From assembly GCF_000027125.1 (NCBI RefSeq), contig NC_017626.1: a stretch of 64,000 nt of DNA. One strand, written 5' to 3'. A program made the position numbers and the translations under genes. Below the pieces are notes generated by a model, which saw nothing but the letters and a program-made list of their open reading frames with translations, had not been told where the DNA came from and ran no database searches. This document shows, one piece after another, positions 15,580-15,595 of this stretch. This DNA is from Escherichia coli 042. GTDB taxonomy: Bacteria > Pseudomonadota > Gammaproteobacteria > Enterobacterales > Enterobacteriaceae. Position 1 is the first letter of the stretch, and each line of letters opens with the position of its first letter.

Positions 15580-15595
15580 TGGCACAGCGATTGCT
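15580..15595 (+). promoter_or_regulatory. Sigma-54 (-24/-12) promoter upstream of lfgB
   Basis: TGGCAC-AGCGA-TTGCT, matching the TGGCAC-N5-TTGCW consensus, 37 bp upstream of the lfgB ATG at 15632. Confidence 0.7.

Follow-up and report, generated by a model that had tools for sequence, protein, structure and literature searches.

The DNA analyzed here is a 64,000-nucleotide stretch of the Escherichia coli 042 chromosome (contig NC_017626.1; referred to below as the window), in which the Flag-2 locus for lateral flagella surrounds the promoter of lfgB. The locus is said to have been first described by Ren et al. in 2005, in this same strain. A 1.6-kb query taken around the lfgB promoter found matches of 90-97% identity in 1279 of the 5426 complete E. 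coli genomes, and the chromosome flanking the locus (36300-44300) was 99.7% identical to E. coli. Gene order was assigned from a RefSeq relative (L001) together with the open reading frames of the window and runs lfhAB-lfiRQPNM-lafK-lfiEFGHIJ ... lfgNMA / lfgB-L ... lafA-U. In the annotation of L001, these correspond to flhA/B, fliR-M, the gene for a protein with a sigma-54 interaction domain (lafK), fliE-J, a variable region that includes glycosyltransferase and lysine-N-methylase genes, flgN/M/A on one strand and flgB-L on the other, and lafA through lafU, followed by dinB. The features with which the analysis is concerned are as follows.

3299-4279, + strand: lafK, encoding an enhancer-binding protein for sigma-54 that combines a GAFTGA-bearing AAA+ domain with a Fis-type HTH at the C terminus and lacks a receiver domain
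14813-15550, - strand: lfgA, P-ring chaperone, the divergent neighbour of lfgB, with the dyad of the next line within its 5' coding region
15514-15528, no strand assigned: dyad GGAAATAAAACTTCC (GGAA-N7-TTCC), candidate LafK upstream activating site, centred at about -85 and lying in codons 8-13 of lfgA
15563-15574, + strand: IHF-like core ATCAGTGACTTA (WATCAR-N4-TTR), a weak candidate bending site between the dyad and the -24 element
15580-15595, + strand: sigma-54 -24/-12 element TGGCACAGCGATTGCT, a unique perfect match in the window, conserved among orthologues
15606 +/- 2, + strand: transcription start as predicted from sigma-54 geometry, some 12 nt beyond the -12 C
15606-15631, + strand: predicted 26-nt leader, with Shine-Dalgarno AGGAG at 15616-15620
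15632-15967, + strand: lfgB, flagellar proximal rod protein of 111 aa, starting at ATG 15632 and not at ATG 15602
15970-16403, + strand: lfgC, broken by the insertion of 2 bp (GC) within the GCGCGC run at 16015-16020
15632-22320, + strand: presumed transcription unit lfgBCDEFGHIJ, its extent judged from gene spacing only

Spacing within lfgBCDEFGHIJ was tight except at repeat insertions at 19078-19215 and about 20040-20200, and lfgK (22496) is separated from lfgJ by a 175-nt gap containing a REP element. Repeats of the REP/BIME type (gtaggccggataaggcgtt.acgccgcatccggca) were seen at 19078-19215, 22330-22420, about 3080-3115, and 28845-28875, corresponding to the lfgF-lfgG gap, the lfgJ-lfgK gap, the lfiM/lafK spacer, and the region after lafA. 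A second extragenic palindromic family (...ccctcacccc.gccctctccc....gggagaggg...), which yields spurious open reading frames with 'LTPTLSHRERE', is present at about 20040-20200 (lfgG-lfgH) and at 12790-13010, beside the methylase gene. Coordinate offsets, rather than an alignment, indicate that the lfgF-lfgH interval of the window exceeds that of E. coli L001 by about 276 nt, which implies that L001 lacks the lfgF-lfgG and/or lfgG-lfgH insertions. Repeats positioned inside the rod/hook operon might alter read-through or mRNA stability. Also absent from L001 is a toxin-antitoxin pair located between lafW and lafZ (25883-26536, + strand), comprising a 114-aa Gp49/HigB-like toxin and a 99-aa antitoxin with an Xre-type HTH; a two-gene toxin-antitoxin pair at this position is a published feature of strain 042 (PMC3032704).

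The sigma-54 element and the start of lfgB

A sequence-only reading of the window had proposed that TGGCAC-N5-TTGCT at 15580-15595 fits the -24/-12 consensus of sigma-54 promoters. This was confirmed: the + strand reads TGGCAC-AGCGA-TTGCT, with GG at 15581-15582 and GC at 15593-15594, all 11 defined positions of TGGCAC-N5-TTGCW are matched, and the element sits in the divergent lfgA/lfgB spacer, ending 36 nt 5' of the lfgB ATG. When both strands of the window were searched with TGGCACNNNNNTTGCW (TGGCAC-N5-TTGCW), this was the sole match with no mismatch. Shuffled windows held a mean of 0.20 perfect matches, and 17 of 100 shuffles held at least one, so a perfect match anywhere in the window is weak evidence alone; if the search is confined to the correct strand and to the 100 or so positions preceding a single given start codon, the expected number of chance matches is approximately 1.6e-4. 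A mismatch-tolerant scan of the window was uninformative, returning 38 matches where 43.6 were expected. The shuffling result, together with a reading frame that is open from ATG 15602, would favour an account in which the resemblance to the consensus is fortuitous, with lfgB expressed from a different promoter and translated from 15602.

Conservation was evaluated in 80 loci encoding LfgB relatives, taken from one genome per species with 3-kb flanks, by scanning the 100 nt upstream of each flgB-homologue start for sites in which GG and GC were invariant and 10 or more of the 11 positions matched. A coding-strand site was found in 39 of the 80 loci, compared to approximately 0.15 loci expected by chance, while the opposite strand of the same upstream regions gave a site in a single locus and the background elsewhere in the 80 loci was 0.00185 sites per 100 positions. 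Relaxing the -12 element brought the total to 71 of 80. An apparent absence of the promoter from Vibrio and Aeromonas lateral loci, obtained with the invariant-GC scan, was overturned, the sites there being TGGCAY-N5-TTGT or TTGA. Across aligned Enterobacterales Flag-2 sequences, TGGCA and TTGC were invariant (16/16), with divergence of the N5 spacer, flanks, and leader in both sequence and length. The 36-nt distance between motif and ATG recurs in four further loci (L002-L005) and is 33-98 nt in the others. Among E. coli alleles, the element varies only at position 6 (C/T) and at the first spacer base; substitutions thus appear to avoid the constrained positions, which argues for purifying selection within the species.

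On the basis of this positional and strand-specific conservation, which extends over dozens of genera, a chance origin is dismissed. The account of a fortuitous motif also runs against the outcome of a simple consensus scan, from which weak promoters could escape, that detected no sigma-70-like promoter on either strand of the lfgA-lfgB spacer, and against the evidence on the lfgB start given below; we find it scarcely credible. We note that no recognizable sigma-70, sigma-54, or sigma-28 promoter for lfgA was found on the minus strand between 15551 and 15700, and any promoter for this gene would need to share sequence with the lfgB promoter or with the 5' coding region of lfgB.

Sigma-54 promoters have a fixed geometry between the -12 GC and the transcription start. 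The start predicted in this way, 15606 +/- 2, agrees with the position near 15607 that had been given previously, and ATG 15602 lies 5' of it. The Met codon at 15632 aligns with Met1 of 16 homologues with identities down to 55%, whose N termini read MGISF or MSISF. RefSeq/PGAP annotates a 111-aa LfgB in five E. coli genomes, and the exact 111-aa protein represents a cluster of 629 members; all homologues and the RefSeq entries use the equivalent of 15632. The PF00460 match falls at residues 20-39, and the Flg_bb_rod motif (ANLANxDTP) is found at a conserved distance from Met1. Promoter-to-ATG distances among the loci were 36, 41, 44, 47, 48, 52, and 57-59 nt, and since they differ by non-multiples of 3, the stretch is non-coding; Citrobacter FP75 has an in-frame TAA two codons 5' of its lfgB ATG. 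In the window, an in-frame TAG at 15596-15598 precedes the open frame, so that any longer form of LfgB must begin within the promoter itself. Together, these data settle the start of lfgB at 15632 against the 15602 of the gene track, as the earlier reading had favoured. For the leader, folding indicated no significant structure, no Rfam family was matched, and neither length nor sequence was conserved in the Enterobacterales alignment.

Consensus sigma-54 sites upstream of lfgB and lafB were reported for E. coli Flag-2 by Liu et al. 2015 in strain PCN033 (PMC4578781), so the lfgB promoter had been predicted in print before. The locus, the gene, and the TGGCAC-N5-TTGC consensus upstream of lfgB and lafB are the same in that report, which states the sites only; the conservation analysis, the start-codon argument, a third promoter, and the upstream dyad are from the present analysis. 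In Vibrio parahaemolyticus, RpoN binding to the flgB2 region (VPA0264, site ATGGCACGTATCTTGTTTG) was seen by gel shift and flgB2C2D2 expression was reduced in an rpoN mutant (PMC9817140), and control of the lateral middle genes (the class-2 tier) by LafK and RpoN is established in this species (PMC4481668, PMC9817140). Like lfgB, flgB2 is the first gene of a rod/hook operon, is divergent from flgA, and has a sigma-54 site about 40 nt upstream, whereas the -12 sequence is TTGT or TTGA in Vibrio and TTGC in E. coli. The proposal of a sigma-54 promoter thus finds support in orthologue conservation, the lack of a sigma-70-like site, the RpoN-bound Vibrio orthologue, and the intact LafK described below. 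Overall, we conclude from comparative sequence evidence that the predicted lfgB promoter is genuine, deeply conserved, ordinary, and already anticipated in the literature.

A dyad shared by three sigma-54 promoters

Two further sigma-54-like sites of the window carry the same upstream dyad as lfgB.

28939-28953, + strand: dyad GGAAACGTCATTTCC of the lafB/fliD promoter, 55 nt upstream of the site TGGCACGCCTTTTGCC at 28994-29009; lafB ATG at 29041
13990-13976, - strand: dyad GGAAACGGATTTTCC of the lysine-N-methylase promoter, 55 nt upstream of the site CGGCACGCTTATTGCA at 13935-13920; coding sequence start at 13885

Upstream of lfgB, the conserved block extends beyond the dyad to 15533 (...GCCTG). 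The resulting 20-bp block, GGAAAYNNNNYTTCCGCCTG, has exactly three copies in the window, each on the same strand as, and upstream of, a sigma-54-like site: 15514-15533 (lfgB), 13990-13971 on the minus strand (lysine-N-methylase), and 28939-28958 (lafB). Because the block was defined after the three copies had been seen, its window statistics are circular; the comparative test is independent of them. In that comparison, GGAA-N7-TTCC preceded the sigma-54 site of flgB in 42 of the 80 loci; its background frequency was 0.021 per 160 nt. A fourth dyad of the window, at 19662 inside lfgG, was treated as a chance occurrence, the accompanying sigma-54-like site matching at only 7 of 11 positions and standing 47 nt away, which does not fit the spacing.

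Measured between the first positions of dyad and site, the distances fell into classes of 55/56 nt (15 cases), 66-68 nt (14), 76-80 nt (12), and 122-123 nt (6), with two outliers. The classes are separated by steps of about 11 bp, a periodicity behind which there are few independent events, as the spacing classes follow clades. In the present genome the distance is 55 nt twice and 66 nt once, the latter at lfgB. Loci bearing the dyad belong to Enterobacterales, Vibrio, Photobacterium, Enterovibrio, Moritella, Aeromonas, Ferrimonas, Rheinheimera, and Pseudomonas/Stutzerimonas. The dyad was absent from the more distant polar-type flgB loci of the set (Marinobacter, Thioalkalivibrio, Amphritea, Nitrincola, and others), in which sigma-54 sites are present; FleQ/FlrA- and FlrC-class promoters of these polar systems resemble that of lfgB in having their site 33-98 nt upstream of flgB and differ from it in lacking the dyad. 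Among E. coli alleles, the four-base arms of the dyad were invariant and the seven-base spacer was variable. Related Vibrio loci share the dyad with E. coli, at 55-56 nt upstream of the site (66 nt in L043); in the Vibrio locus that was read directly (L034) it lies in a non-coding spacer, whereas in E. coli it is 66 nt upstream and inside lfgA codons. The dyad is therefore not a by-product of lfgA codons.

Other arrangements were seen in two groups. In Rheinheimera (L041, L044, and L046, at about 2813-2950), a single dyad stands between divergent sigma-54-like sites, at 79 nt on the flgB side and 56 nt on the flgA side, which suggests a shared bidirectional enhancer. In Pseudomonas/Stutzerimonas (L013-L031), the dyad is 122-124 nt upstream of the sigma-54 site, a second half-site, GCGGAAG, follows about 42 nt downstream of the dyad, and the core promoter is degenerate (C/GGGCAY-N5-xTGCW); this looks like a different enhancer geometry for apparently the same system.

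Between the lfgB dyad and the -24 element lies the IHF-like core, which recurs with an identical offset in loci of Citrobacter, Phytobacter, Yersinia, and Kluyvera. As the region is AT-rich, the core could have arisen by chance and is weak evidence. A dyad centred at -85 and an IHF-like site abutting the -24 element are both nearer the promoter than in textbook sigma-54 promoters.

The lafB gene heads an operon that includes the sigma-28 gene lafS (32641-33357). The 120 top matches among LafB homologues came from E. coli and Citrobacter only, and the comparison of this promoter is one with Citrobacter and with no distant genera. At two Citrobacter loci, the region upstream of lafB keeps the sigma-54 site and a dyad at 56 nt, the surrounding DNA having diverged, and in one of them (L086) this is the only GGAA-N7-TTCC dyad in 21 kb. 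The lafB dyad of the window also scores as a weak terminator-like hairpin after lafA. At the third promoter, CGGCACGCTTATTGCA is located 34 nt upstream of the start of the lysine-N-methylase gene, which is flagellin methylase-like; an equivalent minus-strand pair of dyad and site occupies the methylase-promoter position in L002-L005, and no mention of a sigma-54 promoter for this gene was found in the literature searched.

Scanning with the sigma-28 consensus (TAAA-N15-GCCGATAA) yielded no convincing match where flagellar operons begin. By eye, possible sigma-28-like patterns were seen upstream of lfgK (22436-22463, + strand; TTAAGAAT-N12-GCCGCTTT) and upstream of lfgM (14799-14771, minus strand; TTAAAGTT-N13-ACCGCTTT), and these may be LafS-dependent late promoters.

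LafK and its proposed role in activating the rod/hook operon

The locus encodes no sigma-54 activator other than LafK, which is the presumed activator of the lfgB promoter. The protein comprises a Sigma54_activat domain (PF00158, E value of 1.7e-64), an AAA lid, and a C-terminal HTH_8 domain, with no N-terminal receiver domain; its Walker A motif, GAFTGA (residues 79-84), and Walker B motif are all intact. Francke et al. (PMC3162934) grouped LafK with PspF and HrpR/S, activators that have no signal-recognition domain. The activators of polar systems, by contrast, are described in the literature as carrying receiver or FleQ N-terminal domains. PspF at pspA is similar to LafK at lfgB in that the activator consists of AAA+ and C-terminal HTH domains only and the promoter combines a sigma-54 core with an upstream dyad and a possible IHF site, whereas its target sequence and regulon are unrelated to those of LafK. 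PspF is held in check by PspA. A PspA-like inhibitor of LafK was not found in the literature searched.

We consider it probable that the rod/hook operon of the lateral flagella has its class-2 (middle) promoter at 15580-15595 and that this promoter would be opened by LafK acting via the dyad. Sigma-54 RNA polymerase would bind the -24 GG and the -12 GC (15581-15594) and form a closed complex that cannot open by itself. LafK, encoded 12 kb upstream, is expected to bind the GGAA-N7-TTCC dyad at 15514-15528, within the first codons of lfgA, and, possibly helped by an IHF-type bend at 15563-15574, would contact sigma-54 and use ATP to open the promoter. Transcription would then begin near 15606 and proceed through a 26-nt leader with AGGAG to the lfgB ATG at 15632 and on through lfgC to lfgJ. 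The same design of dyad and sigma-54 site would likewise drive the lafB operon, including lafS, and the flagellin lysine-methylase gene, such that these three units would constitute the LafK regulon of the locus.

In this scheme, the LafK-dependence of lfgB would follow solely from the dyad common to the three sigma-54 promoters of the locus, and it is from co-occurrence only that the dyad is probably the LafK enhancer, or docking site. The promoter could be a real sigma-54 promoter whose activator, or the protein that binds the dyad, is something other than LafK: a different enhancer-binding protein of E. coli, acting at another site or from solution; LafZ, a regulator of the locus with an OmpR-type wHTH; or a nucleoid protein. 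With the contact between LafK and DNA being an inference, LafZ or a host factor could fill this role. Pairing of activator and promoter is also loose, given that cross-activation by LafK between polar and lateral systems has been published (PMC4481668, and the title of a study cited in PMC3162934), and several lateral gene clusters of Aeromonas were reported to be LafK-independent (PMC4481668), yet the dyad is kept in Aeromonas loci. Against such an activator stand the position of LafK as the sole one of its kind in the locus, with its HTH_8 DNA-binding domain retained, and the distribution of the dyad, which follows lateral-type loci (Enterobacterales, Vibrio, Photobacterium, Aeromonas, Pseudomonas, and Rheinheimera) without extending to polar-type ones. 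Dimeric activators with a Fis-type HTH, moreover, usually target dyads of this kind (15 bp, half-sites spaced by one helical turn), whereas winged-helix regulators of the LafZ type usually bind direct repeats. An activator or dyad-binding protein different from LafK is accordingly judged improbable, and LafK remains our candidate.

Strain 042 itself carries a lesion in the operon. The lfgC reading frame ends after 21 codons, and deletion of 2 bp restores a FlgC of 143 aa; the +2 insertion was called relative to E. coli O158:H23 and Pseudocitrobacter, and lfgC is intact in L001. The frameshift has been published for this strain (PMC4578781, PMC3032704), and because of it no working rod can come from the operon. 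The strain was reported to be non-swarming, E. coli Flag-2 has never been demonstrated to be functional (PMC3032704), and in EC958 neither Flag-2 nor LafA was expressed under laboratory conditions (PMC4637896). From these observations, the promoter could be viewed as an intact relic with no present function in strain 042, conserved by descent in a Flag-2 system that is genetically dead. Such a view concerns the phenotype and not the identity of the element. It is countered by the integrity of promoter, dyad, and lafK, by a design identical to that of loci with intact lfgC (L001), and by the allelic pattern in E. coli described above; we hold it to be unlikely, although it carries more weight than the substitution of another activator for LafK.

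No description of a LafK binding site or of the GGAA-N7-TTCC dyad was found in the literature searched, which did not reach the founding papers, and the dyad is apparently undescribed before. Putting these elements together, we tentatively propose, as a reading whose chances we place somewhat below even, that the dyad is an undescribed LafK enhancer common to the lateral systems of Gammaproteobacteria; that it would work only at phased distances of about 55 + 11n bp from the -24 element; that in Enterobacterales it has been pushed into codons 8-13 of lfgA; and that it would define a compact regulon of the rod/hook operon, the lafB-lafS-motor operon, and the flagellin methylase gene.

The lfgB promoter itself adds nothing new; the added value of this analysis is confirmation of the start codon and a candidate LafK enhancer with helical phasing. 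Flag-2 is found in about a quarter of complete E. coli genomes, yet its expression has not been seen in the laboratory. In the divergent region between lfiM and lafK (2912-3298), neither a sigma-54-like site with at least 9 of 11 matches nor a dyad was detected; REP-like sequence is present there at about 3080-3170. The switch for lafK, and hence for the whole system, is invisible in the sequence, and the search for an inducing signal narrows to lafK itself. The dyad offers a concrete, testable candidate for the LafK target and an example of a putative enhancer embedded in the codons of a neighbouring gene. If the proposal is correct, a dyad with a sigma-54 site 55, 66, or 78 nt downstream would serve as a sequence rule for LafK-controlled genes, and the LafK regulon would be readable from sequence in any genome.
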